From: Candidatus Omnitrophota bacterium
GTDB lineage: Bacteria; Omnitrophota; Gorgyraeia; Duberdicusellales; 4484-171
NCBI GenBank assembly: GCA_021735655.1
Contig: JAIPGM010000009.1
Span: 4,976 to 68,975 of the forward strand
DNA length: 64,000 bases
Reading direction: 5' to 3'
In this document: positions 17,951-58,000 of the stretch, piece after piece
How the letters are laid out: every line of letters begins with the position of its first letter
Numbering within the stretch: position 1 is the first letter of the stretch
The notes under the pieces: generated by a model
Database searches by the model: none
Seen by the model: only the letters and a program-made list of their open reading frames with translations
Told to the model about the DNA's origin: nothing
Translations under genes and position numbers: made by a program

Positions 17951-19198
17951 TTATGTCTGTCTCAAAAATAGCTGAAATGACCTAGGTGGTAAATTAAATG
18001 AATAGTTATCAGTTACTATATTGAACTTTTTCTTGTTATTGTCAATGTTTATGAATTTTCCCTGTATTGTCCTGGAATCAACCTCAACCTGGATTGATTC
18101 GGTACACTTATTAAATACCGCGATACCGTCACCTTCCCGGCTAAATATAAGATGGCATTTTCCGGCTGAAACAATCTGCATAGTCTTCCCCGATAGAAGA
18201 TTGTGAAATTTTATCATCTTTAGTAAATCCTTGCTCTTGTAAGCATCTTTCCACTGATCAGAATGCATTCCACCTTCTTTTCCTTTATCAGAATAAACTA
18301 ACGGGACTCCGCCATCTCTGCCAATAATATAAGCATAAGCAATCTTTTCATCTATTCTATTTGGATCGTTAGAATCAAAGATAAGTTGTCTCATCTCCTG
18401 ATTATTAGGGATATCATGAGTTATGGCAAAAGTGAGACTTCGGAAACGGTCCAGCTGATCCGGTTCTTTTAAAGCTTCCAGACTACCCTCAATACTTAAG
18501 GCCTTACGCATTGAATAGAAAAGATTAAAATCATAGACTGAAAAGTCAACTCTCTTTAAAAAATCTTTTAAGAAAATTCTATGTAACTCAGGAATTATCT
18601 CAGCAAAAATATATAAACCTCGGGTTATCTCCTCGGTAAAAACTTTTTTAATATGTTCTATCGACATATGCTTAGCCGCATCAATCCGAAACCCGTCAGC
18701 ACCTATTTTTTTTAAAGCCCTAAGGTATTCTTTTTGGGCAGAAATCACCCTTTGACTGTCAGGATCTAAATCCGACAGGCCGGTATCAGTCTTGTGGCTA
18801 AAATCCTCAGCTGAAAAGATATCCTTTGATAAATCACCATATAGACGATTTCTAGCAAAAACTGGATCTTGCTGATACTGGTCTAGAATATCTTTACCAG
18901 GAAAATCCAAATTATCATCTCTACGATGAGCCATGTGGTTAAAGACTACGTCGATATAGATTTTTAAATTATTTTTTTTTAAAGTTTGAATCAAAGAGGT
19001 TAATTCTTGCAGATTGCCCAAAGGCGAGAATATAACTCGGTAATCTAAAGGTTGATAGCGATAAAACCACTCTTTACCCTGACTAAAGGTAGGCGGCGAA
19101 ATAAGTATGGCGGAATAACCAAAGCTGCTGATCTCTTTTGCTTGTTTCTCTATTTCCTTAAATTTCCAGTTAAAAGCATGTAAAATGACATTACCCAT
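17951..19198 (-). CDS. Alpha-amylase family glycoside hydrolase (GH13)
   Basis: YIDVVFNHMA (region I) and GFRIDAAKHM (region II, catalytic Asp). 415 aa. Confidence 0.8.
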   Translation of the reverse strand: MGNVILHAFNWKFKEIEKQAKEISSFGYSAILISPPTFSQGKEWFYRYQPLDYRVIFSPLGNLQELTSLIQTLKKNNLKIYIDVVFNHMAHRRDDNLDFPGKDILDQYQQDPVFARNRLYGDLSKDIFSAEDFSHKTDTGLSDLDPDSQRVISAQKEYLRALKKIGADGFRIDAAKHMSIEHIKKVFTEEITRGLYIFAEIIPELHRIFLKDFLKRVDFSVYDFNLFYSMRKALSIEGSLEALKEPDQLDRFRSLTFAITHDIPNNQEMRQLIFDSNDPNRIDEKIAYAYIIGRDGGVPLVYSDKGKEGGMHSDQWKDAYKSKDLLKMIKFHNLLSGKTMQIVSAGKCHLIFSREGDGIAVFNKCTESIQVEVDSRTIQGKFINIDNNKKKFNIVTDNYSFNLPPRSFQLFLRQT

Positions 19199-19339: not shown

Positions 19340-19915
19340 CTATTTTCTTTTTAAAAACGAACTATTATGTTTTCGTAAAAATCTTCTATGCGGATTGCCT
19401 AGAGGGAACAGATTATTTTCAGTTACAAACTGCATATCTTCTATGGTATAAAAAGCATTAGGATTGAATTTCTTTATTATTTGTATAACCCTTTTTAAAT
19501 TCTTGCGTTTAACCACACTAAAAATAACTTTAACCGGTCCATCTTTACCTTGAGCATTAATACTGGTGACGCCATAACCCTGCTTACTCATAAACTGCAC
19601 TAAATCTACGGCATCTTTCTTAGTTACTATTTGAATCATAAGATTACCCATTAGAATTCGTCTTTCTATAGAAATGCCCACAAAGTTTCCCATACCAAAC
19701 CCAGCGGCATAAGCGATGTAATGGCTTACACTGCTTAGATTCTTCATTATCTGAGTAATAGCTATAAGCCAAATTAAAACTTCAAAAAAACCCAATACGG
19801 CTGACAAGAATCTTATCCCCCGGGAAACAAATATAATCCTGATAGTGCCGATAGTAACATCGATAATGCGGGCTAGAAAAATCAAAAACGGAATTAAGAT
19901 ATAATTTATTTCCAT
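19340..19915 (-). CDS. UPF0316/DUF2179 family membrane protein
   Basis: LARIIDVTIGTIRIIFVSRG N-terminal membrane region and a C-terminal DUF2179-like soluble domain. Last gene of the KamA operon. Confidence 0.5.
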   Translation of the reverse strand: MEINYILIPFLIFLARIIDVTIGTIRIIFVSRGIRFLSAVLGFFEVLIWLIAITQIMKNLSSVSHYIAYAAGFGMGNFVGISIERRILMGNLMIQIVTKKDAVDLVQFMSKQGYGVTSINAQGKDGPVKVIFSVVKRKNLKRVIQIIKKFNPNAFYTIEDMQFVTENNLFPLGNPHRRFLRKHNSSFLKRK

Positions 19916-19927
19916 AACTTTCTCGAT

Positions 19928-21004
19928 TTAGCGAAAAATCTTTAATATTTTATTACGCCAGTTATTATAAAAATAATGTGCTTTGGGCCCAGCCTGCTTT
20001 AGCAATTCCGGAGAACTACCTAGCCCCCTTATTTCAATCATTGCATCCTTAAGAAAAATTGAATATCTTTTGCTGATTTTTTTATTATTAATAAACCGCT
20101 GGGCAGCATCAACGATGTTATTAGCAGTAAACTGAGCGATCTGATCGGGTACACCACTAGGAGTTTCAGATTGAGAAGTCATATCGCATTGGTCGTTAAC
20201 GTAATCTATGACTAAAAAACGCTTTTTTCCCTGTTTTTCATCAATAGCTATTTCACTTGAAAACCAAGCCATCCGGGTTATCGAAGCAATTTTAGAAACT
20301 ATCTTGGCTAAGGGGAAAAGACTATGCTTATTAAATTCTTCATAACCTATATGTTCATAACGATTAGCCTGATCATCCCACCAGCAAGGTATTATAGTAT
20401 CAAATACATTAAACCCTCGAAACCAAGCACGTTTTCCTTCTATTTGGATAGGAACAATCTTCTCCTGTAGTAAAAAATTATCGCCTCGGTCAAACTTCCG
20501 AGCTTGAGCAATTTCTCGAATTGTGCCCCGAGCATCACGAATAACACCTAATTGACCATAGCCAAGCGCCGGCTTTATTACAAAAGGAACCCCTAGTTTC
20601 TTCTTCTCCTCATCGGGAAGCCTAAAAGTAGTCGGTTCCCAGTTACGAACAACAACTGTATAGGGAGCCATAATCCCGGCATTGATTAACTCATAGTGCA
20701 TTGCTGATTTATCAATTGCACTCTGGGCCCGATCAGGATCATTAATAACCACCCCACCGCTATCTTTTACATCATAGCAAATACGAGTGTAGATATCGCC
20801 TTTTTTATTATAGGTAGCCTCGGTGTCCAGTAAAGCCTTGATTACAAGCTTTCTTTGATCAAGATCCCGAGCCACTTGCCTTACATTATCTTTAGATATC
20901 CAAAGGAAAGAAAGTTTTCTTTGCTTGCAAGCGGCCTGGAGTAAAACAACAAACCTCTCCTTGATATTACCACTCCAAGTCAAACCAAAATCGTATCTTT
21001 TCAT
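19928..21004 (-). CDS. ATP-grasp domain protein (YheC/YheD- or RimK-like ligase)
   Basis: GVPFVIKPALGYGQLGVIRDARG and downstream FLLQEKIVP are consistent with ATP-grasp B and C subdomains. 358 aa. Confidence 0.55.
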   Translation of the reverse strand: MKRYDFGLTWSGNIKERFVVLLQAACKQRKLSFLWISKDNVRQVARDLDQRKLVIKALLDTEATYNKKGDIYTRICYDVKDSGGVVINDPDRAQSAIDKSAMHYELINAGIMAPYTVVVRNWEPTTFRLPDEEKKKLGVPFVIKPALGYGQLGVIRDARGTIREIAQARKFDRGDNFLLQEKIVPIQIEGKRAWFRGFNVFDTIIPCWWDDQANRYEHIGYEEFNKHSLFPLAKIVSKIASITRMAWFSSEIAIDEKQGKKRFLVIDYVNDQCDMTSQSETPSGVPDQIAQFTANNIVDAAQRFINNKKISKRYSIFLKDAMIEIRGLGSSPELLKQAGPKAHYFYNNWRNKILKIFR

Positions 21005-21936: not shown

Positions 21937-24132
21937 TTACCTATCAAAGCTAAAACCATAACGATTAAATGAATCTTGCAAAATCAACCTTATTAAACTA
22001 TTGTAACTGTTACCTTTCAATTTGTAAAGAATTGGTAAATCACCATACGAAGATGAGAGACCAGGCAAAGGGTTAATATCTATTATCTTAGGTTTGTTCT
22101 GAGTATCAAGGCGAAAATCTATACGCGCCATATCCTTTAATTCTAATTCTTTATATGCCTTTATAGCATAAAATTCAATTATTTTCTGAATATTTTTTAA
22201 AATACTCTCCTGTGGCTCATATTTAACTTTATTTTGCCAATCCTGTTTGATCTCAAGAGAATAGAGAAAGTTCTTGCAAGCCTTATCCCTAGGCACTATT
22301 TTCATCATTCCTAGAATTTGTGGAACTTCATTGCCGTAAACTCCTACGGTAATCTCATCTCTCTCCAAAAACTCTTCTATCAAGGCCGGCTGTTCATATT
22401 TCGAAATTATTTCCTCTACTCTCTTTTTTAAATCATCAAAGTTGCTGACTAAAGAATTAAGAAAAATTCCCTTTGAAGAACCTTCCCAACGCGGCTTTAC
22501 AAGAAATGACCCGTTTCCTCCAAAAATATTTCCTAAATTTTCTAAATCTTTGACATCCTTAATCATAGCCATCTCTGGAACCAGAATATTTGCTGATTTT
22601 AATAATCTATTGGTTAGGTATTTATCTAGAGTGATTCCTAAGGCGACTGGATCTGATCCCGAATAGGGTATATCTAAGCTTTCAAGGATTGCCGGAACTT
22701 GCGATTCACGCCCCCTCTTATCCCCTCTGCCTTCGGCGATATTAAAAACGAAATCCGGCCTTTGACTCAACAATCGTTTTAGAAAATTATCATCCTGCTC
22801 AAAAATAACTACCTTGAAACCGTATTTTTCTATTTCTTTCTTTATGCTTTCAATGGTCTCAATTTCGTCGTATTCCTCATGGTTCTCGCCAGCATCCTTA
22901 TTTTTAAGATTAAATGTTATACCTATTGTATTCACTGAGCGGACTTTTTTAGAATTAGTTATTGCTTCTGGCTGAACAGGAGTATCCTGATAAAAAAATA
23001 TTTCATCTTTATAATTTTTTAATATCATTCCTCGGTCAGAATCTGAAACCAAATAATCAGGACCAAAGGGGATTTTACCTTTCCCGCCTATAGCATCAAT
23101 AACAAAAGTCGGTACACACATACCGCTAGTAAACCCCTGCATTTTTTTGATAATTTCTCTACCTTGCCAAGGTGATGTTCGAAAATGAGATGTCCCGCTA
23201 ACCGGATCACACTGAAATAAATAATATGGCCTAACCCTTATCGCTTGTAGTCTCTGACATAAATCCCTCATCACTTGCAAGTTATCATTCACCCCCTTAA
23301 GCAATACTGACTGATTGCTTACAGGAATACCTATTTTTTGTAGTTTTCTGCAAGCTAAAGCTGCCTGAGGGGTAATTTCTCTAGGGTGGTTGAACTGGAC
23401 ATTAACCCAAACATTGTCATATTTTTTTAGCATCTCACAAAGCCGATCATCTATCCGCCGAGGGAAAACAACCGGAGTACGCGTACCGATACGGACAACC
23501 TCAATATTACTAAAAGAATGAATTTTTGAAAGTATAGCTTCTAGCCGTTCTGTAGGTAAAGTTAAAGGGTCTCCTCCGGAAACTATTATCTCCCTAATTT
23601 TCGGATTCCGGCCCACATAATTTAAGGCTCTATCTATATCTTCTAGGGTTGGTTCATTTATTTTTTTGCTCCATATTCTTTTTCTTGTGCAGTGGCGGCA
23701 ATACATAAAGCAACGGTTAGTTACTAAAAGCAGTGCCCGATCAGGATAGCGGTGTACTAAGCAATCTAAGGGAGAACTCTTTTCCTCAGCTAAAGGATCC
23801 TTGCTTTCAAAGGAACCTTGGCTAAGCTCATCAAAATTAGGTATGCATTGTTTTCCAATCGGATCGCAGTTATCAGAGGTATTTTCAATTAAGGAAAAGT
23901 AGTAAAAAGGAATTTTCAAATGGTAAGCATCAGAAACTTTCTTTAATCGACAAATCTGTTCTTTATCTAAAGGTAGGTATCGAGAAAGGTCTTCAATGTT
24001 GTTAATAAACTCTTTAGGATCATAATACTCTCTCCCAACATCAAGAGTTTTGTTGTGATAATTTACAGTTTCATAACTAGGTCCGCCAGGTTCCTCTTCA
24101 AGGAAAGTTTCAGCATCCAAGTTATTGCTCAT
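21937..24132 (-). CDS. Fusion protein: lysine 2,3-aminomutase-like radical SAM domain (KamA/EpmB family) plus C-terminal D-Ala-D-Ala-ligase-like ATP-grasp domain
   Basis: LLLVTNRCFMYCRHCTRKR (KamA CxxxCxxC context), SGGDPL and PYYLFQCDPVSG (KamA PLP/Zn region). From about residue 420, a Ddl-like fold: central-domain glycine loop at GNGSFLVKPRWEGSSKGI and C-terminal RIDFRLDTQNKPKIIDINPLPGLS. GAGGAGG RBS upstream. Confidence 0.7.
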   Translation of the reverse strand: MSNNLDAETFLEEEPGGPSYETVNYHNKTLDVGREYYDPKEFINNIEDLSRYLPLDKEQICRLKKVSDAYHLKIPFYYFSLIENTSDNCDPIGKQCIPNFDELSQGSFESKDPLAEEKSSPLDCLVHRYPDRALLLVTNRCFMYCRHCTRKRIWSKKINEPTLEDIDRALNYVGRNPKIREIIVSGGDPLTLPTERLEAILSKIHSFSNIEVVRIGTRTPVVFPRRIDDRLCEMLKKYDNVWVNVQFNHPREITPQAALACRKLQKIGIPVSNQSVLLKGVNDNLQVMRDLCQRLQAIRVRPYYLFQCDPVSGTSHFRTSPWQGREIIKKMQGFTSGMCVPTFVIDAIGGKGKIPFGPDYLVSDSDRGMILKNYKDEIFFYQDTPVQPEAITNSKKVRSVNTIGITFNLKNKDAGENHEEYDEIETIESIKKEIEKYGFKVVIFEQDDNFLKRLLSQRPDFVFNIAEGRGDKRGRESQVPAILESLDIPYSGSDPVALGITLDKYLTNRLLKSANILVPEMAMIKDVKDLENLGNIFGGNGSFLVKPRWEGSSKGIFLNSLVSNFDDLKKRVEEIISKYEQPALIEEFLERDEITVGVYGNEVPQILGMMKIVPRDKACKNFLYSLEIKQDWQNKVKYEPQESILKNIQKIIEFYAIKAYKELELKDMARIDFRLDTQNKPKIIDINPLPGLSSSYGDLPILYKLKGNSYNSLIRLILQDSFNRYGFSFDR

Positions 24133-24202: not shown

Positions 24203-24532
24203 CTAATAATCTTGGTCAGGATAAACTTCTTCGCTGTCATCATCGTATCCTAACTCTTCATCATAAATATACTCATAGCTCAAAGCCCGCAAACCTTCCT
24301 GGCTATTTTCGGCTTTAATTTCCACATTATCTCCAAGCTCAAAATAAGCCTCTTCTACTAACTCTTTAGTAGTTAGCACTTTTTGACCACCAACAGTAAT
24401 ATAGCTACCGTCCTCGGAAATCTGCTCTATCTTACCCTTAAGCAACACTGAATCATCTTCCTGAGCAAAAGCAAAAGTTGTCCCAGCCAAAATCATAACC
24501 AACAACAATGTTAAATATTTTTTCATGACCAT
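24203..24532 (-). CDS. Small secreted protein with acidic C-terminal tail
   Basis: Signal peptide MVMKKYLTLLLVMILAGTTFAFAQ. C-terminus YDEELGYDDDSEEVYPDQDY. Overlaps the LysW-like gene by 10 nt. Confidence 0.45.
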   Translation of the reverse strand: MVMKKYLTLLLVMILAGTTFAFAQEDDSVLLKGKIEQISEDGSYITVGGQKVLTTKELVEEAYFELGDNVEIKAENSQEGLRALSYEYIYDEELGYDDDSEEVYPDQDY

Positions 24533-24750
24533 TCCTCCCTTTCTCCTTTTCCGTTAAAATCTTCTTCCTCCTCACTGTAATCCACGTAATCATCCCAGGT
24601 GCCGATTTCTTCCTCTAGCTCTACCGGATTAAGCTTGGTTAATTTAAGCTCTGCAAAACAACCCTGACAATTAAGGATATCGGCAATCCCCAAACCTTCT
24701 TCAATCTCAACATTTTCTTTACAAACCGGACATTTGGTTTTTTTAACCAT
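24523..24750 (-). CDS. LysW/ArgW-like zinc-ribbon amino-group-carrier-protein homolog with extended acidic tail
   Basis: CPVCKENVEIEEGLGIADILNCQGCFAELKLTKLNPVELEEEIGTW aligns with the CPxCG...E...LGE..xCxxCGAELEV..LDPL.LE....EDW core of LysW. A further 22-aa acidic tail ends in REEWS. GGAGG RBS 5 nt upstream. Confidence 0.55.
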   Translation of the reverse strand: MVKKTKCPVCKENVEIEEGLGIADILNCQGCFAELKLTKLNPVELEEEIGTWDDYVDYSEEEEDFNGKGEREEWS

Positions 24751-24864: not shown

Positions 24865-25203
24865 TTATCTTTTAGTTCGACGAGTTGCTTTTTTATCACT
24901 GGCGAAAGTTTTAGTAGCTCTAAACTGAGAAACAATAAAATCGGTAATTCGACATTGAGGAGAATTAAGATCCTTATTGCGCCGGTAAAAAACCGAGTTG
25001 CCCTTTCTCCGGTCAAAAACTAGCTTAAGCAGGCGCAACCTCATTAGATGCTTGGAAATCGTAGGCTGGCTTACTTTTAAAACAACACATATATCTTTAA
25101 CGGTAAGTTCTTTCTCATCCAGCACATTTATTATCCTTAGACGCGTATCATCGGAGCAGGCTTTAAATATCTGGCGTAATGATTTTAGATTTACTTTTCG
25201 CAT
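24865..25203 (-). CDS. ArsR/SmtB-family transcriptional regulator
   Basis: Start reassigned to MRKVN. Helix-turn-helix LTVKDICVVLKVSQPTISKHLMRLRLLKLV is typical of ArsR/SmtB. Confidence 0.65.
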   Translation of the reverse strand: MRKVNLKSLRQIFKACSDDTRLRIINVLDEKELTVKDICVVLKVSQPTISKHLMRLRLLKLVFDRRKGNSVFYRRNKDLNSPQCRITDFIVSQFRATKTFASDKKATRRTKR

Positions 25204-25221
25204 ATAACATTCCTTTATTGG

Positions 25222-25260
25222 TATATACGTATATATATCATCGGTTAAAAAGGTTGTCAA
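25222..25260 (-). promoter_or_regulatory. Sigma70-like promoter with palindromic operator candidate upstream of the ArsR gene
   Basis: On the minus strand: TTGACA (25260..25255), a 17-nt spacer, then TATATA (25237..25232). The perfect 14-nt palindrome TATATACGTATATA (25222..25235) overlaps the -10 and the predicted +1. Confidence 0.4.
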
Positions 25261-49043: not shown

Positions 49044-52000
49044 TTACAAATCAGTTGCTTTTTTCTTCTTTTTCTCATCATCGTCTTTGCCGCCAAAATA
49101 AGGAGCTAGAGTCCCTTTGAGGTTAATATTCTGCTCAATGAACTCATAAGCACCACTATCTAGGCTAATACCATCAAAGCCTGACTCATCGGTTACAGTT
49201 AACGGATGATAAGCATAAAAATCGGTGCTTCTAACTGGGGTAACTGTACTAAATCTATAGTTAGCCATCAATTCATAGTAAGTCCTAGAATCACGCAAGA
49301 TACTTGCTAAAAATTGAGCACCGTCAAATTCTGGTAAGAAATCTGGCCAAATCTGCTGAGGTCCTAAGTTAGCTGCCGCAGGGCCAAACAAAGGTGAAGC
49401 ACCTCTGGTGTCGGTATCATCATAAAAGATGTATCCCGGAGGTGTAACATTGGTTAAGTCAATATCTGGCGATGGAAAAACCCCGGTAACTGCTGTAACC
49501 CCAGGTCTAACTATACCTTCAATGGCTCCGCTTACCCCTAAGGTACCACTAGGACCAGCTAAGGTAAAACCAGGAGCAGCGCCACCTATCTCTAGGGTAA
49601 GCCCAGCAACTGGCGTAAAACCAGCAGGAACTGCCCATTTTGAAGGATCTAAATCCACTGCCTGAATATTTACATTTAAAGGATTATAAAAATTATCTGC
49701 ATCTACTGGAACTCCTGCGTTACCAATTCCAATTGTGCCTTCTGGTGTTGAGAAATAAGAATAACTTCCAGCAATTACGTTTGGCCCAGAAACCGGGTCA
49801 ACTACGTAATGTGAAAATACATCTATTCCACCATCGGTCGACCAAGGAGTACCAGTTAAGTCCATCGGAAGCGCTCTTGCGAAATCATTTACCGTGTCAG
49901 GACCAGTTGTTACGTCTGGTTGTACTCCGCTAGGATCCCAGCCGGTTCCGGCATAAATCGAGCCAGTGCGGCTTTCTAAATAAACTCCACCGCGCGGTGC
50001 GATAACTGAGTTAACTGTCATGTCCCCACCACTACTAACATTAATTATCCCATTATTAGCAGCAACTGAAAGACCATAAAGAGTGCCTGCGTCCTCAGTC
50101 AAGGTACCTAGGGTAATGCTGTCTAATTCATTAACGTAGATGTTTCCTACATCCCAAGAGTAAGCACTTAAATAATCAACTGCTGTCATAAATGGCGAAG
50201 CACTGGTACCGATATTGTGACGGGCCAATAACCCGGCAAAATCAGCGCTAACCAGCGAAGTAGCATCACCATAGATATTACCTTCCCAAGCATAGATATC
50301 TACTTCTGAGCTGCCTGTACCGCCAACTGAAGCTGAAATAGAGCTATTAGCAAGGGTTACATCGCCGTTACCAGAGATTAAAGTTGCTCTGGCATCGCCG
50401 TCACCTATCATCTCAGCTGAAACAGTACTATCAGTAATATTTACACCCAAATTAGCAAATAATTCAACTAAAGCTGTATCACTACCACTTAAAGCTTGAG
50501 CTAAAATAGTGCTGCCATTAGTTACGTTAATTTCACCATCTTGGGCGGTTACGCCTATTTCGGCATGACCTTCTCCATCTACGTCAGCAGTAATATCACT
50601 ATTGCTAATATTAACATCGTTAAGGGTATTAATATCAACAAGGGCTATTCCTTCATTGCCTACTAAAGCTTCCAAGGTTGAATCGGTAATTGTTGTACTA
50701 TTCCCAGCAACGCTAAGAATAGTTGCATCACCATCATTGCCAACTGAAGCTATTACTGTACTTTCTATTACCTCTATGTTGCCTTTGTCGGCAGCCAAGT
50801 TAACCGTAGCATCGCCATCATTTACTACTGATGCAGCAAGTGTACTCGGATCAATGGTTATATCATTTGCGGCAAGAACGTTAATCGTAGCATCGCCATC
50901 ATTACCAACCAAAGCTTCCAAGGTTGAATCAGTAATTGTAGTATTGTCGCCAGCTTCTAAGTTAACTGTTGCGTCACCGTCATTACCAACCAAAGCATAT
51001 CCATAATCAGTGTAGGCTTCAACATGACCAGTATCGACCTCGATATCATCTTCAGCTTCGATATTGACAGTGGCTTTGATGTCGCTGTCTTGGATTTCGA
51101 CTCTTTCATCAGCTTCTAGATTGATCTCAGATTTAACCGTACTAGAAGAGATCTTGACATCATCAGCTGATACTATATCGACCTGAGCTTCAATTGTCTC
51201 ATCAGTTACTTCGATGTTTTCTCCAGCTTCAATGTCAATTGTTGATTTTACAGTGCTGTCTTGAATTATTAGGTCATTCCACCAGTTGCCTTCTTCAGGA
51301 TCCCAACCACCGACTACTAGGTCGATCTCGGATTTAACGGTGTCAACGTCATCGCCGTTGGTGATCTCAACGTCATCTTCAGCATCGATGTCAACTGTGG
51401 CTAATACATTACTGTTAACAATCTCCATCCTCTCATCAGCCTTAAGCTCGACTTCAGACTCGATATGGCTGTCGATTGACTTTACGTCATCTGAGGACTT
51501 AAGAGTTACTTCAGATTCGATGGTCTCACCAGTTACCTCTATAGTATCCTCAGCAGTTACATCGACTAAGGCCTTAACGGTTGATTCTTCAATTACCAGG
51601 TCGCTCCAGTTGCTGTCATTGTCACCACTCCAGCCGCCGGCTACCAGATCTATTTCAGCTTTGATAGTTTCACCTTCAGCGTTAGTGATTTCAACGTCAT
51701 CTTGAGCCTCAATCTCAATAGTAGCTAAGATATCGCTGCTTTCAATTTGCAGACGGTCTTGAGCTACTAGTTCAAGTTCGGCTTCTATAGTGCTATCAGT
51801 TATCTTTACATCGTCTGAAGACTTAAGAGTTACTTCAGATTCGATGGTCTCATCAGTTACTTCAATCTTGTCATCGGCAGTTACATCTACCAATGATTTA
51901 ACTGTTGAATCTTCAATTACCAGGTCGCTCCAGTTGCTGTCATTATCACCACTCCAGCCGCCGGCTACCAGGTCTATTTCAGCTTTAACAGTAGTCTCAC

Positions 52001-55000
52001 CTTCAGTGATCTCAACGTCATCTTCGGCGTCAATAGCTACAGTTGCTAGAATATCACTGTCAGTTATTTCTAAACGATCATCAGCTACTAGCTCGGTTTC
52101 AGCTTCGATAGTGCTTTCAGAGATCTTCACATCGTCGCCGGAAGCTATATTAACTGTTGATTCAACAGTCTCACCGGTTACTTCGATCTTGTCATCGGCA
52201 GTGATATCGACCAGTGATTTAACCAAACTGCTGTTGATTATTACATCATTCCACCAGTTACTTGCATTGTTTACCACGATATCAATCAATGAGCCGATAG
52301 TTTTACCGCCGTCATTGGTGATCTCAACGTCATCTTCAGCTTCGATATTGACAGTGGCTTTGATGTCGCTGTCTTGGATTTCGACTCTTTCATCAGCGCT
52401 AATCCTAACTTCGGCCTTAACATCACTAGAAGCAATCTTTACGTCCTCATCGGCACTCAAGTTTACTTCTGCAGTTAAGTCTTCACCGTCTAAGTCGATA
52501 TTAGAATCTTCCAATTCGACTTTAGCCAATACTGTACTGCGTGTTACCTCTATATTGTTGTCAGCTTGGGCATTAACCGTTGCTTGGCCTTTTCCTTCTA
52601 AAATCGCCTCGACTGTACTGTCCTCTATTTTAATGTCATGATCAGCTTGTAAGTTAACTCTTGATTCACCATCAAGATAGTTAATCGCTCTAACCAAACT
52701 GTCATTCTTTACTATTAAATCATTACCAGCAGTAATATTTACACTGGCTACGCCGGTGTCAGAAGGTGGATCGATTGCTCTAACAGTGCTGTTATCCACA
52801 GTCACATTGCCTAAATCGGAATGGATACCAATATAGGCGCCACCATCAGATGAAGGGGCAAGTTTAGAAAAAGCGCTTACTAAGCTATCCTTGATCACTA
52901 TATCATTATCGGCAAGTAAGTTAATCCAGGCTGATGCACCAAGGGCCCTGGCGATAACATCACTTCTTAATAAACCGATTCTATTAGCATCGAATCTAAT
53001 TCTTGATAGTCCACCAAGATTTAACTCATTAGTAACTACCCTTGAGTCAATCACCCTAATATCATCATTAGCATCGAAGAAAATCCTGGCTAAGTAATTA
53101 CCGAACGAATTAGCTCTAACTACGCTACCGTCTCTTAGACCGATGTTTTTACCAGCATGAAACTCAACATTTGCCGGACCATTATTAATTGAGGTAGCTG
53201 CAACTCGTGAGTTTGTTAAACCGATATTATCCCCAGCATCTATTGTAATAATTGCTGAGGCTACTCCATCAAGCACCTGGCTCAACAAATCGCTGTTGTT
53301 CAGAAATACATCACTAGCAGCATCAATATCTATCTCAGCATGGCCGGTGTTTGACACTATTGCTTTCACTTCACTGTCATCGATTGTAATATCGCCATTC
53401 TCGGTCGAAATATCTACATAAGCATTACCGTTCAAAACTGATGCTGTAATGTAGCTTGTGTCTATGGCAATGTTATCACCGGCAGATAGATCAACTGAAG
53501 CATCGCCGTCACCCTCAACGGTTGCACTTACAGTGCTGTCAGTGATGGTTAAATCTCCATTCTCAAGTGTACCCGATGTAGGAGGAACAGGTTCGTAAGG
53601 AGTGGTCCAATCACCAGCTACCATTTTAACCGTAGCATTACCGTTTCCGGTTACATTAGAAGAAACTGTACTATTAGCAACACTAATGTTCTCACCTTCA
53701 GCAAAAACCTCTGCATTACCAGTACCGGTTTGAGCTGAAACTGTACTTGAATCGTTTATATTAAGATCAGCGCCATGGAAAGTGCTGTTATACAAATCTG
53801 GATCAGGAAAATTTATCATAATCCCATCTGCATGCAATCCGGCGCTAAGTTCAACATTGGCATCGCCGGTTCCTTGAGTGATTGCGCTAACTGTGCTGTC
53901 AACAACATCGATCCCCTGCCAAGCACGGACAGTTGTTGTAGTATCACCATTGCCAGCTGTGAAAGCTCTGACTATGCTGTTGTTTTGTATTGCGGTATTG
54001 CCAGAAGTTCCAAAAAAGACTGTTGAATCTCCGTCATTACCAACAGTGGCTTCGATTGTACTGTTATCAACTGTTTGAGAGGCAATCGGCCCATGAGTAA
54101 GCAGTGAAACTTCAGCATCACCGTCATTGCCAATAGCCGCTGAAACAGTACTATCTAAAACTTGTAACGGCCCAGCCGATCTTAAAACAACACTAGCGGT
54201 GCCATTTAAAGCTGAGGCCGAAATCAAACTCGGGTCTATAGTCAGAGTTCCGTCGGCAATCATATTTCCAGCAGTTAAATCAACTGAAGCATTGCCAGTG
54301 CCTACGACAGTAGAAGTAATATCACTATCGGTTACAGTAACATTTGTACCAGCATCTACATCAATCGAAGCATCGCCATCAAGGCCAATTCTAGCTAAGA
54401 TATCGCTATCGACTATCGAAACTAGACCATTAGTTGCATTTGCAATAACTGTTGCATCTCCACCGCCGCGGACTCTTGAACGAATTAGGCTATTGTCCCT
54501 AATGGAGATTCCTCTTCCCGGTGTTGTTAAGCTAACTGAAGCATTTCCATTGCCATTAACCCAAGCATCAATGACGCTTGAGTCGTACACACTGATTCCA
54601 TTGTCAGCATCAGCAGTAATCAAAGCATTTCCATCGCCCGCACGAAAAGCCTCAATAGTTCCATCTACAAAAAGAGTTCCACTGTTAACGTCTAAATTAA
54701 TAACTGCATCATCAGCTGGACCAGATCCAGTTGCCAAAACTGAATAAGCATAAGTATCTCCACCGGTAATAATATCGACTACACTCCCTAGAGCCTGGAT
54801 ATCCCAAAGATTTACACCGTCTAACTCGTTAATCCATACATCGCCACCTAAAGCAATCGCTTGCCAGATATCATCTACGTTAGTGTCAATATGATCACCT
54901 GGGACACCAATAGTACCAGCTGCATTCATGTAAAGATTTGGAGCTGTTAAATTAATGCGATTACCATTAGTATCGAGAATATCGCCTGCAGAACTAGTTA

Positions 55001-58000
55001 AACGAATATTATCGCCAGCATTAATAACACCTAAAGAAATATTACCAACTGCATTAATATTAGCATCATGACCAGCCGTAACAGTGCTATTCGATACCAC
55101 AACCTGACCATCAGCGTCAATATTTACATCATAACCTGCGGTCATATCACTTGAACCATTCATGATAGTATCTCGACCGGTGACAACGTTAATACTTCCG
55201 TCAGAAAGTAACGCCGAGCTTTGGCTCATGATTAAATCCTGAGCTGCATAGATATCAACCAATCTGCCTGAGCGGATAGTTGAATTATTGTTCATAAGAA
55301 CATCTCTCTGGGCATCTACGTCAACCCAAGCTGTACCTAAAATATCTGCATTGTTAAACATCCTTAAGTCTGCATCAAGGTTTACATCAACAATTCTGGC
55401 TTCAATTGATGAGTTGTTATGCATACCTAAACCAAAAGCGTCAATGCGTGCATTAGTGGCATTAATTGCTGAAGTATTATACATTCTCATAAGATTAGCC
55501 ACATCAATCGTTACATTTGTACCTGAGATAGATGATCTATTATTCATTGTAAAATTATCTGGCCCTGCTCCATCACCTACGTTTACAAATATATCAGTTC
55601 CGGTAATCGAAGATGTGTTATTCATCTCCATATAATCATCGGCTGAAACATTCACCGTAGCACCATGGATAAGAGCATCGCCGTTCATAGTTAAAGTATC
55701 ATTGCCAGATCCATTGCCAGCTGAAACATTAACTATACCGCGTGTGCCAATAGTGCCTGTATTGTGGACTAGATCGTTATCGGCATGTACATTAACTGTA
55801 CCTGAGCCAAGGCTGATAACATCAGCGTTAACTGTCATATCAGCTCCGGGGCCAGAACCATTAGCTGCTAAACTAACATCACTATTTCCAACAACATCAG
55901 CATTAACTGTCATTGGCGAACCAGTAGTAATATCAATATTTCCACTACCAAAGTTCTTTACGGCATATCCCCATCCTGGCAAATCATTGAGGGCTATAGC
56001 ACCCTTATTGCGAATAGTGATATCACCGCTTGAATCAGGATCGCGTACCTGTGCGCTTAAACTGCCAATTCGAGTTTTCAAATCAATTGAAGTCTTTGCA
56101 TCAAGTATCGCTGTATCAGAAATGATGTTTGGCCCAAACCCACTATTACCTATAATAGAGCCGGTAAAGTTAAATGGATAAACATCGTAGCCCATTGTCA
56201 AAAGAATAACATCAGTTGCAATTAATTGGTTAATCGCTAAGTCAGTTAGCTCATTTAAATTAATAAGCCCGCCAACGCGACCCTCTAAAGTTTCTATCTC
56301 GGTCTCGATTCCATTACCTAAACCAGCGAGACCAACATTACCGTCAACATCAAAGGCAAGTGTGTCAGCTACAATATCAGTGCCGATGTCGCCTGAGCCC
56401 TGCTCCTGCACATCACCTGAACTGATTAGCTTAAATTTCAGCCCCGGCTGATCTAAATTATTAATTGTGATAGTTCCGGCGCTACTTGAACCGATATTGA
56501 TAAAACCAGAAGTAATCAAATTGTAGATTTCATCATTAGAAAGCCTAAACTGACCATAAGCTAAATGTGCGGCTAGAGCAATTGTCTGAGCAGCGCTTGG
56601 GGCAATAGTAATATCTGCCGTGCCGGCATCTACGATACCGTCAACATTAATGTCATCAGCGCTTATGTAGACTTCTCCGTCAGTTGCTCCAGTTGTATCT
56701 ATAACCGAACCATTTTGCAAATCATAGAAACCAGTAGTATCACCATCGCTATCAGCTGAACCGGTAAAGCTTCCACCACCGGTGTAAACATCTCCACCAG
56801 AACTATGGATAATATCACCTACGGCAGCCAAAATTACATCTCCGCCGCCACTATTGATCAAAGCATTAACATAAAGGTTAGGATCATCAACTACGGCTAT
56901 ATCAATAAGTCCGTTGTTAGTAGTAATCGCACCATCAAGCCATAAATCACCAGAGTTAATCAAACTGAAGCTATCTCCGTCAAATCCACCAAAATGCATT
57001 GCACCAGCATGATACATGGCGGCTCTTTGAGCAGTAATAGACATATTGTTTGATCTTAATTCAAGAGCACCATTTGTACCAAAACCGATATCACCACCGG
57101 CATTAAAATCTATGGTATTGGCTGATATATCAAAGTTAGTAATACCACCTGCAACCTTATCAATTCCATCAACAGCATTGCCACTATCATAAGCATCATT
57201 GATATTTCCACCGGCCGTAACTGTTACTGTTCCTAATGCAGGAATAGCTGAACCAGTAAAAGTACCATCAGTTGAAACCCTAGTAACATAAGCATCTTGG
57301 GCAGCAGTTAAGTCAATATCTCCGCCGTCAGTAACTACGCTGCCTGTTTGACTAATAGCCAAATCTCTTCCAGCATCAAGACCAACATTGCCAGCGCTTG
57401 AATCAACAGCAGCATTTACTGACAAATCTCCATCAGCACCAGCTGCAGCTAAACTAATATCGCCCAAGGCTAAAACATCAGAATTTACTGTTAAAGGAGA
57501 AGCTGTAGAAATATCAACTGCTCCACCGATATTATTAACACCACTACCGGCGATAGTTAGATCTCCAGTATTATCAATTTCTATATTTCCTGAAATCGTA
57601 TTAAGAGCTTCTAAATTACTTACCTGTGTTTCTAAAGCATCGCCGGAACCGATTCCTTGAGCTGCAGAAATGCTTAAAGAATCAGCGGTGATATCAGGAG
57701 TAGTGGCACTATTAGCATCTACTACTGCCCCATCACTTGAATTTATATTAACATTTACACCACTCAATCCAGTTGTAACTGTTGTTGAAGTGGCGCCTAA
57801 AGGATCGCTTCCTACCTCATAAGATGCTTTTAACCACGCATCACTTCTGGCAACATTTGAAACCCTGACTTCATCAATCTGGCCTTCAGTTAAATAATTT
57901 GTATCACCCCAACCGCCAATCATAAAGTCGGTAGCAGTATCGACATCGCCTGATGAAGTTGCAAAACCAATATTGTCACCTGCGCCATCTACATACAAAC

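Follow-up and report, generated by a model that had tools for sequence, protein, structure and literature searches.

A gene on the minus strand of a 64,000-nucleotide (nt) stretch of the Candidatus Omnitrophota contig JAIPGM010000009.1 (the window; coordinates refer to it unless a locus is named) encodes a single protein of 731 amino acids (aa) in which a KamA-type radical S-adenosylmethionine (SAM) aminomutase is fused to an ATP-grasp ligase with the fold of D-Ala-D-Ala ligases (Ddl). Judged by its conserved residues, the first half is likely a lysine 2,3-aminomutase, and the second half is, on the same kind of evidence, a catalytically competent Ddl-fold amide ligase with a charged pocket. 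We consider it probable that the fusion is a bifunctional enzyme that forms beta-lysine and then incorporates it into an amide, plausibly one serving as a solute. In other lineages the two activities are mostly encoded by adjacent separate genes within a four-gene cassette.

Authenticity of the fusion gene

The open reading frame (ORF) at 21937-24132 starts with ATG, contains no internal stop and is preceded by a GGAGG ribosome-binding site about 6 nt 5' of the ATG at 24132. The plus-strand reading of the same interval was rejected, as its frame is riddled with stops. The initial annotation had described a complete KamA-like module running without a stop into an ATP-grasp half, and this description holds with exact coordinates. 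The motifs CFMYCRHCTRKR (aa 141-152), SGGDPL (aa 185-190) and PYYLFQCDPVSG (aa 302-313) were read directly from the protein; the Pfam domains Radical_SAM (aa 136-284, 62 bits) and LAM_C (aa 328-413, 57 bits) scored above their gathering cut-offs, and the NCBIfam KamA family model TIGR00238 reached 294.7 against a cut-off of 199.2. The domain search with hidden Markov models (HMMs) that had been proposed as a check also located the ATP-grasp fold in the C-terminal part, where Dala_Dala_lig_C covers aa 543-718 with 98.5 bits (cut-off 24, E 4.8e-28) and NCBIfam Ddl models cover aa 424-723. The catalytic residues of both halves are all intact.

The protein is 100% identical to an NCBI/GenBank entry from a metagenome-assembled genome, 'KamA family radical SAM protein [Candidatus Omnitrophica bacterium]'. 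A search for the same architecture in public genomes retrieved, among the best 120 database matches, 84 fusions in the KamA-to-ligase order and 13 in the ligase-to-KamA order from NCBI, ENA, JGI and Logan assemblies. Counted as protein clusters from independent assemblies, the KamA-to-ligase architecture is present at least 84 times; it occurs in Omnitrophota, Nitrospirota and several archaeal lineages, and the identical sequence of P0005, a close relative, was found on at least 24 contigs from different runs. The fusion is therefore genuine, and a merging error of the assembly is ruled out for practical purposes as the origin of the ORF. Split genes separated by a few nt are the commonest state, and a single indel could mimic a fusion; nevertheless, the linker varies in length and sequence among the independent clusters, and both halves have high-confidence folds with complete catalytic residues, which leaves a negligible chance that two genes were merged by an assembly or sequencing error or that one half is a decayed pseudo-domain. 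The same counts do not bear out the earlier view of the fusion as unusual, since about 100 protein clusters share its architecture and there are sister fusions of the types ligase-ligase and S51-ligase-KamA. The fused architecture is already visible in databases, where this very protein is deposited; no description, functional or other, of the KamA-ligase fusion or of the cassette was found in the literature.

The aminomutase half

The first half was aligned to lysine 2,3-aminomutase (LAM) of Clostridium subterminale (PDB 2A5H), which is also its Foldseek match in the PDB (template modelling score, TM, 0.75; 47% identity). Its residues C141, C145 and C148 correspond to C125, C129 and C132 of 2A5H, S185-D188 to S169-D172 and K353 to K337. 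The lysine-binding set is likewise retained (R150, D309 and D346 for R134, D293 and D330), and Y287 and Y288 of 2A5H are matched as well. Across 92 fusions the equivalents of C125/C129/C132, R134, SGGD, D330 and Y287 are invariant, while D293 is kept in 90 and K337 in 91. In the split cassette kamA genes (n=62) the same residues are invariant among complete sequences, with D293 and D330 present in all 62.

D293 and D330 of the C. subterminale enzyme reportedly hold the epsilon-ammonium group of lysine, and they are said to be replaced by Lys and Asn in glutamate 2,3-aminomutase. Both Asp residues are kept here, and the glutamate 2,3-aminomutase model scores 379.8, below its cut-off of 650. The arginine 2,3-aminomutase model (TIGR04468) is lower still at 343.9 (cut-off 600), followed by EpmB at 236.3 bits, likewise short of its cut-off. 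The top curated equivalog is AblA (TIGR03820) with 425.6, yet this too lies under its cut-off of 525.4. The call as a lysine 2,3-aminomutase thus combines the retention of catalytic and lysine-specific residues with the rank of AblA as the best curated model.

One feature sets this KamA clade apart. The four cysteines C268, C375, C377 and C380 of C. subterminale LAM, which form a structural Zn site that joins the dimer, correspond in the window protein to N, I and two gaps, and in the alignment to 2A5H these Zn-site cysteines are missing from nearly all fused and split members of the clade. Because of this loss, the predicted quaternary structure of the clade must differ from that of the clostridial enzyme.

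The ligase half

Full-length Ddl structures (8EVY, 1IOW and 4C5A) were the Foldseek matches of the second half in the PDB (TM 0.85-0.87 over ~320 columns, ~22% identity). Since these matches span complete DdlB structures, the modelled ligase half is an entire three-subdomain Ddl-fold enzyme, more than a C-terminal ATP-grasp fragment. The fold, the ATP-binding lysines, the Mg2+ ligands and the oxyanion Arg/Gly that define the ATP-grasp superfamily are all present.

The ligase family was mapped onto E. coli DdlB by profile alignment and a 241-sequence MAFFT alignment, with 175 family members compared. Positions for ATP, Mg2+ and catalysis (K97, K144, E180, K215, R255, D257, N272 and G276 of DdlB) are kept in 175 of 175; the equivalent of E187 is E in 172 and D in three, and that of E270 is kept as E or D. 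In the window protein the ATP-grasp residues are K504, K546, E586, E593, K629, R670, D672, D685, N687 and G691.

The D-Ala pocket, in contrast, has been replaced. In DdlB numbering, H63 is changed to E, E68 to R and G252 to D in every one of the 175 members and M259 to R in 174, with further swaps of L282 to D (147 of 175), I60 to N and Y216 to R, W or Q. The corresponding residues of the window protein are E467 (H63), R475 (E68), Q630 (Y216), D667 (G252), R674 (M259), G697 (S281) and D698 (L282), and the family carries an extra invariant EEYD motif. The best curated Ddl score is 137.4, against a cut-off of 243 (PRK01372), and the remaining Ddl/Van models are far under their cut-offs. D-Ala-D-Ala ligase identity was therefore rejected: the term 'Ddl-like' used in the initial annotation is apt for the fold but not for the substrate, the D-Ala-binding residues having given way to invariant charged ones.

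Structure model and linker

The whole fusion was modelled with AlphaFold2 from a 73-sequence alignment (A2) of same-order fusions. The model has a mean predicted local distance difference test (pLDDT) of 88.9 and contains two confident domains. The N-terminus (aa 1-38) and the linker (aa 386-396, pLDDT < 50) are disordered, and the predicted TM score (pTM) is only 0.54, which leaves the relative placement of the two domains undefined. Both the length and the sequence of the linker vary among the fusions in A2. Comparison with split loci showed that it corresponds to the stop, intergenic and start region between the separate genes, and the fusion may merely secure co-expression and proximity of the two activities.

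Distribution and gene order of the cassette

To place the fusion among its relatives, one genome per GTDB species was scanned with a ligase-domain alignment (A1), and neighbouring ORFs were classed by phmmer. As a result, at least 80 ligase loci with 37-60% identity were retrieved (these and other loci are cited by L numbers) from Omnitrophota, Synergistaceae, Dehalococcoidia/Chloroflexota, Planctomycetota (Gemmatales and others), Thermodesulfobacteriota/Syntrophales, Acidobacteriota, WOR-3 and others. A wider pattern count of 594 loci was not relied on, as it is not specific to ligase 1 and paralogues fit it too. In the prevailing arrangement kamA, ligase 1, a paralogous Ddl-like ligase 2 and a GNAT of ~160 aa are four separate genes in close succession. 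This order was found in 36 of the 80 retrieved loci, many further loci being broken by contig ends, and kamA directly adjoins ligase 1 in 52 of the 80 at a median distance of 4 nt. L006 is the single fused locus in this set. More fusions with ligase 2 and GNAT downstream come from another Omnitrophota genome, a Nitrospirota member (Magnetoovum) and a Methanocellales archaeon. The reverse ligase-to-KamA order characterizes a Eubacteriales-type group, in which an S51 (cyanophycinase-like) peptidase is either adjacent (L004) or fused N-terminally (L005). Both the fusion and the ligase family extend to archaea without murein, namely Methanocellales, Woesearchaeota and Thermoplasmatota.

A rough neighbour-joining tree of the ligase domain requires at least nine changes of architecture, and the Omnitrophota fusions nest in it among split genes of Omnitrophota and Planctomycetia. 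When the ligase domain was searched exhaustively with HMMER against 1.84 billion representative proteins, 380 clusters were obtained at E <= 1e-30; the best 150 of these comprised 102 lone ligases, ~41 tandem ligase-ligase proteins and four KamA-ligase fusions. Tandem proteins take the forms G1-G2, G2-G1, G1-G1 and G1-G2-G2 (P0241, P0245-P0247, P0255, P0267 and others). Fusion of cassette neighbours is thus common beyond the KamA-ligase pair, and its repeated occurrence is strong comparative evidence that the cassette enzymes would act consecutively on one metabolite. The initial annotation had taken the covalent fusion to imply channelling of the aminomutase product into amide ligation. Its premise of one pathway is upheld, because the two activities are adjacent in most of the loci, are fused in both orders and became fused repeatedly; physical channelling is not supported, given the disordered linker and the low pTM.

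None of the four cassette proteins is named by an NCBIfam equivalog; the GNATs match RimI weakly and AblB not at all. Clustering of neighbour families yielded mainly lineage-specific synteny (sigma-54 regulators, ABC ATPases, TatC), and only HDAC-family, MarR-type helix-turn-helix (HTH), MarC and MFS proteins seem possibly relevant. An HDAC-family (PF00850) deacetylase gene directly follows the GNAT in 13 Dehalococcoidia loci; its product, in L032 (13117-14856) and the 12 others, has 579 aa with a ~265-aa N-terminal extension. A MarR-type HTH gene lies ahead of the cassette in 13 loci. Immediately downstream of the cassette, a MarC-family integral membrane gene was seen in two Omnitrophota genomes and four Chloroflexota loci (for example L086 11211-11795, L088 10966-11550 and L044 12511-13113), and its product may be a transporter for the cassette product. 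Hydrolases accompany the cassette in different lineages, as S66 in the window, L086 and L087, as S51 in L004 and L005 and as the HDAC family in Dehalococcoidia, which suggests that the product is made and later broken down.

The operon in the window

Beyond what the initial annotation had noted, the fusion gene is part of a tight minus-strand operon that also encodes an S66 amidase and a second ATP-grasp protein, and a LysW-like gene lies upstream (Table 1). Neither ligase 2 nor the cassette GNAT was found by tblastn anywhere in the window, so that the operon is a cassette variant without these two genes. The six-gene unit of the fusion recurs in relatives at 77% and 67% identity (L086 and L087) with different outer flanks. 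A scan of the operon region for promoters and terminators yielded no more matches than chance would give.

Table 1 Features of the fusion gene and its operon in the window
Feature	Position	Strand	Evidence
Fusion gene, KamA-type lysine 2,3-aminomutase (putative) and Ddl-fold ATP-grasp ligase, 731 aa	21937..24132	-	Single ORF; Pfam/NCBIfam; AlphaFold2 and Foldseek
KamA (putative lysine 2,3-aminomutase) domain, aa ~40-385	22978..24015	-	phmmer to 2A5H, E 1.2e-105, aa 40-405
CxxxCxxC [4Fe-4S]/SAM motif CFMYCRHC, aa 141-148	23689..23712	-	Direct read; invariant in 92/92 fusions
Lys353 codon, counterpart of Lys337 of C. subterminale LAM, which binds pyridoxal phosphate (PLP)	23074..23076	-	Alignment to 2A5H
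Inter-domain linker, aa 386-402 (aa 386-396 predicted disordered)	22927..22977	-	pLDDT < 50; no consensus in A2
ATP-grasp ligase domain, aa 403-731, complete N, central and C Ddl-fold subdomains	21940..22926	-	Foldseek TM 0.85-0.87 to DdlB
S66-family serine amidase/carboxypeptidase, 306 aa	21014..21934	-	Pfam Peptidase_S66 and S66C
RimK/LysX-like ATP-grasp, 358 aa, large unnamed family	19928..21004	-	Weak LysX/RimK matches; 9-nt gap after S66
DUF5698/DUF2179 membrane protein, last tightly spaced operon gene	19340..19915	-	Pfam/NCBIfam; 12-nt gap to RimK-like gene
Small secreted protein, 109 aa: signal peptide, DUF5666-like domain, acidic C-terminal tail	24203..24532	-	Weak DUF5666/ExtJ matches
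LysW-like zinc-ribbon protein, 75 aa: CxxC...CxxC core and acidic tail	24523..24750	-	Pfam Zn_ribbon_LysW
ArsR/SmtB-family regulator at head of gene group	24865..25260	-	Pfam HTH_5; NCBIfam metalloregulator subfamily 73.6 > 55

The ATG of the S66 gene lies 2 nt after the TAA of the fusion, and the gene holds the same position in L086 and L087. Its product passes the Pfam cut-offs with 113 and 88 bits but scores only 98 with the LdcA equivalog (cut-off 378); its best PDB matches are MccF (6.7e-29), slightly the nearer of the two, and LdcA (1e-22), and its GYSD/LED/GH catalytic motifs align to those of MccF. The RimK-like protein is 42% identical to a homologue in L001 that matches Pfam RimK. 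Its family comprises more than 1000 'hypothetical proteins' (55-91% identity, without a Pfam domain) from Omnitrophota, Elusimicrobiota and Margulisiibacteriota, and relatives of the RimK-like and S66 proteins occur elsewhere at L090 4305-6268 and L089 6001-7086. The pair is found without KamA in a Margulisiibacteriota genome and is therefore a separable module that may or may not be tied to the fusion in function; in a complete Omnitrophota genome the RimK-like gene stands next to a LysM/Amidase_2 cell-wall hydrolase, and the pair may be a murein-peptide module not characterized before. The DUF5698/DUF2179 gene is not kept at this place in relatives, where a MarC-family gene is found instead.

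Upstream of the fusion, the 75-aa LysW-like ORF passes PF21344 with 28.6 bits against a gathering cut-off of 27 (29.4 for the L001 homologue). Such genes lie beside the cassette, fused or split, in eight Omnitrophota loci, either before the fusion or, in L088, after the GNAT; homologues of 53-85 aa are at L001 7287-7472, L006 8064-8282, L007 7844-8056, L086 6348-6536, L087 6272-6466 and L088 10790-10951. The HMM detected none in any non-Omnitrophota locus, and none was seen beside RimK-like genes outside the KamA context. In the LysW carrier the substrate is received by an EDWGE-type C-terminal tail ending in Glu. The window tail ends ...EREEWS, and the last residue among the eight proteins is E in four, F in two, D in one and S in one. 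Between this gene and the fusion lies the gene for the secreted DUF5666/ExtJ-like protein, which has a beta domain and a strongly acidic tail often ending in Tyr, with homologues in the same position at L001 7453-7866, L006 8317-8694, L007 8004-8477, L086 6557-6889 and L087 6494-6826. The ArsR gene is also upstream of the cassette in L001, L006, L020, L086, L087 and L088.

Just 3' of the cassette, several Omnitrophota carry alpha-amylase-family or trehalose-synthesis (TreT, DUF5752) genes (window 17951-19198 on the minus strand, L086 11806-13056, L088 11751-15511 and L001 13028-14883), which hints, if weakly, at a common neighbourhood for solutes or carbohydrate reserves. Elsewhere in the window, a giant minus-strand ORF (49044-60017, 3657 aa) matches in Pfam only Laminin_G_3/Laminin_G_1 and DUF2341 near its N-terminus and probably encodes a large surface protein. 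The window (1-64000) has 42 non-nested ORFs with 150 aa or more, all on the minus strand, and the five plus-strand ORFs are nested in longer minus-strand ones; the GC skew is negative in all 2-kb bins, and neither tRNA genes nor Rfam family matches were found in the 64 kb.

Proposed function and alternatives

In the mechanism suggested by these data, the KamA domain would use a [4Fe-4S] cluster, SAM and PLP to convert free L-lysine to beta-lysine by shifting its alpha-amino group to C3. The ligase domain, going by its fold and residues, would then form an acyl phosphate with ATP that is attacked by an amine to yield an amide. Fusion and synteny point to beta-lysine as one ligase substrate, and the other partner probably carries charge, given the invariant Glu, Arg and Asp that stand in place of the D-Ala pocket. 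With ligase 2 and GNAT, the full cassette could, more speculatively, build a small N-acetylated, beta-lysine-containing, peptide-like metabolite. In the clade of the source organism the fusion is translationally coupled to the S66 amidase and the RimK-like ligase; since ligase 2 and GNAT are missing, the local product is probably simpler, perhaps a beta-lysine amide or dipeptide, which the S66 amidase could hydrolyse and so recycle. Our best guess for its role is a nitrogen-rich cytoplasmic solute, either a compatible solute or a reserve, by analogy with N-epsilon-acetyl-beta-lysine. The fusion would ensure 1:1 co-expression and proximity of the two activities.

Several points weigh against this reading. 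The curated equivalog scores of both halves stay under their thresholds (AblA 425.6 < 525.4; Ddl 137 < 243), so that both substrates are ones we infer, and beta-lysine could occupy either the acyl-donor or the nucleophile site. The osmolyte or reserve role derives from analogy and weak neighbourhood hints (a trehalose synthase in L001 and glycoside hydrolases in the window, L086 and L088). Furthermore, some Synergistaceae and other loci have the ligases with no kamA within 10 kb, the link of the S66-RimK-like pair to the fusion may be positional only, as the pair also occurs without KamA, and a protein-tethered mechanism is hinted at by the LysW-like neighbour, which is specific to Omnitrophota.

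That last hint leads to an alternative for Omnitrophota: lysine or beta-lysine would be loaded on the acidic tail of the LysW-like protein by the ligase domain, the RimK/LysX-like ligase or both, would undergo further chemistry while tethered, in the manner of LysW/LysX lysine biosynthesis, and the product would be released by the S66 enzyme. The LysW-like ORF clears its Pfam cut-off, half of the eight tails end in Glu, the gene remains linked to the cassette despite its shifted position and not to RimK-like genes elsewhere, and a LysX/RimK-like ATP-grasp gene sits in the same operon. However, the orthologous ligase of other phyla has no such partner, the EDWGE/Glu terminus is not kept (the window tail ends in Ser, others in Phe or Asp), the conserved D293 and D330 imply for KamA a lysine substrate whose epsilon-amine is free, and the small genes, 70 nt from the fusion, could be a separate ArsR-controlled unit; on balance we regard a carrier pathway as unlikely. 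The MccF microcin-immunity amidases, which are the best solved-structure matches of the S66 protein, raise another possibility, namely that the product is a beta-lysine antimetabolite or antibiotic dipeptide comparable to bacilysin, from which the S66 enzyme, or elsewhere the GNAT, protects the producer. GNATs that acetylate the amine of beta-lysine confer streptothricin resistance, and ATP-grasp L-amino acid ligases, of which BL00235 is a weak PDB match here, produce dipeptide antibiotics; MarC-family and MFS membrane proteins also lie near some cassettes. Conservation across many phyla with small streamlined genomes and across archaea, with stable gene order and housekeeping surroundings, is unlike the patchy clusters of secondary metabolism, and no dedicated exporter was consistently near the cassettes, which makes a bioactive peptide with self-immunity quite unlikely.

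The Ddl fold itself would suit a role in the cell envelope, where a beta-lysine dipeptide would enter a modified peptidoglycan stem or cross-bridge while the S66 LD-carboxypeptidase and the RimK-like ligase act in murein-peptide turnover. The S66 family does include murein tetrapeptide LD-carboxypeptidases, the S66-RimK-like pair is conserved on its own, and the cell-wall hydrolase beside the RimK-like gene in the complete Omnitrophota genome would fit. Against this stand the replaced D-Ala pocket, the presence of ligase family and fusion in the murein-less archaea and the fact that mur genes are linked in none of the examined loci, and we judge an envelope function very improbable. A broader proposal, which extends our favoured reading of a beta-lysine-ligating bifunctional enzyme, can be put forward tentatively: a pathway, undescribed yet widespread in anaerobic bacteria and archaea, might make a new class of beta-lysine peptides, small, assembled by ATP-grasp enzymes and usually N-acetylated, for which Omnitrophota recruited the LysW-like protein as a carrier. 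If true, this would be the first amino-group-carrier-type protein to partner a radical-SAM aminomutase/Ddl-fold ligase.

Beta-lysine is known in few contexts: the osmolyte N-epsilon-acetyl-beta-lysine, the modification of elongation factor P (EF-P), lysine fermentation and some antibiotics. The fusion and the split cassette point to a further, ATP-grasp-based use in poorly understood lineages (Omnitrophota, Dehalococcoidia, Planctomycetota, Synergistaceae, Thermodesulfobacteriota, DPANN and methanogen-related archaea). As a Rosetta-stone link, the fusion would assign a substrate to the large family of Ddl look-alikes that make up the 380 representative clusters. A KamA-ligase fusion alone will not shock a specialist; the breadth of the cassette, the substrate hint and the LysW-like neighbour together form a directly testable lead, and the single polypeptide can be expressed for product identification. 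The practical value lies in better annotation, a candidate new metabolite and a possible new beta-amino-acid ligase for biocatalysis.

Comparison with known systems

Like the Ddl/VanA-type ligases, the ligase half has a complete three-domain fold and all residues for ATP, Mg2+ and the acyl phosphate, whereas its low identity, scores below the curated cut-offs, replaced pocket and occurrence in murein-less archaea set it apart. The L-amino acid ligases (BacD/YwfE, BL00235, RizA and TabS) are also ATP-grasp enzymes and join unprotected amino acids into dipeptides, and BL00235 (3VOT) is a distant profile match; the relation is nevertheless remote (E 1.6e-13 versus 1e-49 for Ddl), and we know of no member of this group that uses beta-lysine or is fused to an aminomutase. 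Cyanophycin synthetase and cyanophycinase resemble the reverse-order fusions L004 and L005 in combining ATP-grasp amide synthesis with an S51 peptidase, which matches the cyanophycinase model weakly, but the cassette lacks a Mur-ligase-like domain and signs of a polymer, and the window peptidase belongs to S66. With the LysW/LysX system the window shares a small upstream protein with an acidic tail and a fit to the LysW zinc-ribbon model, as well as a LysX/RimK-like ATP-grasp in the operon, whereas the tail has no kept EDWGE/Glu end, LysZ/LysY/LysJ/LysK homologues are missing and the likeness is confined to Omnitrophota loci.

In the EpmB/EpmA (YjeK/PoxA) pathway of EF-P beta-lysylation, a KamA paralogue likewise makes beta-lysine and an ATP-dependent ligase couples a carboxylate to an amine. 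However, EpmA is a paralogue of class II lysyl-tRNA synthetase without an ATP-grasp fold, the two genes are unfused, the EpmB model scores 236 against 426 bits for AblA, and the cassette also occurs in archaea, which are without EF-P. GshF (GshAB) glutathione synthetase, in which gamma-glutamylcysteine ligase is fused to a Ddl-related ATP-grasp domain, is alike in architecture as a biosynthetic enzyme joined to a ligase that couples the product of the first domain to a further amino acid; its upstream domain is no radical-SAM aminomutase. Finally, AblA/AblB, which produce the methanogen compatible solute N-epsilon-acetyl-beta-lysine, differ in that AblB is an acetyltransferase and the partner in the fusion an ATP-grasp amide ligase, in that the cassette GNATs are short, weakly RimI-type and without an AblB match, and in that the fusion falls under the AblA cut-off and its KamA clade lacks the Zn site. 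In both systems, nevertheless, a KamA-type aminomutase is encoded beside an enzyme that derivatises, or here would derivatise, beta-lysine, AblA is the top curated model for the KamA half, and a GNAT belongs to the wider cassette.

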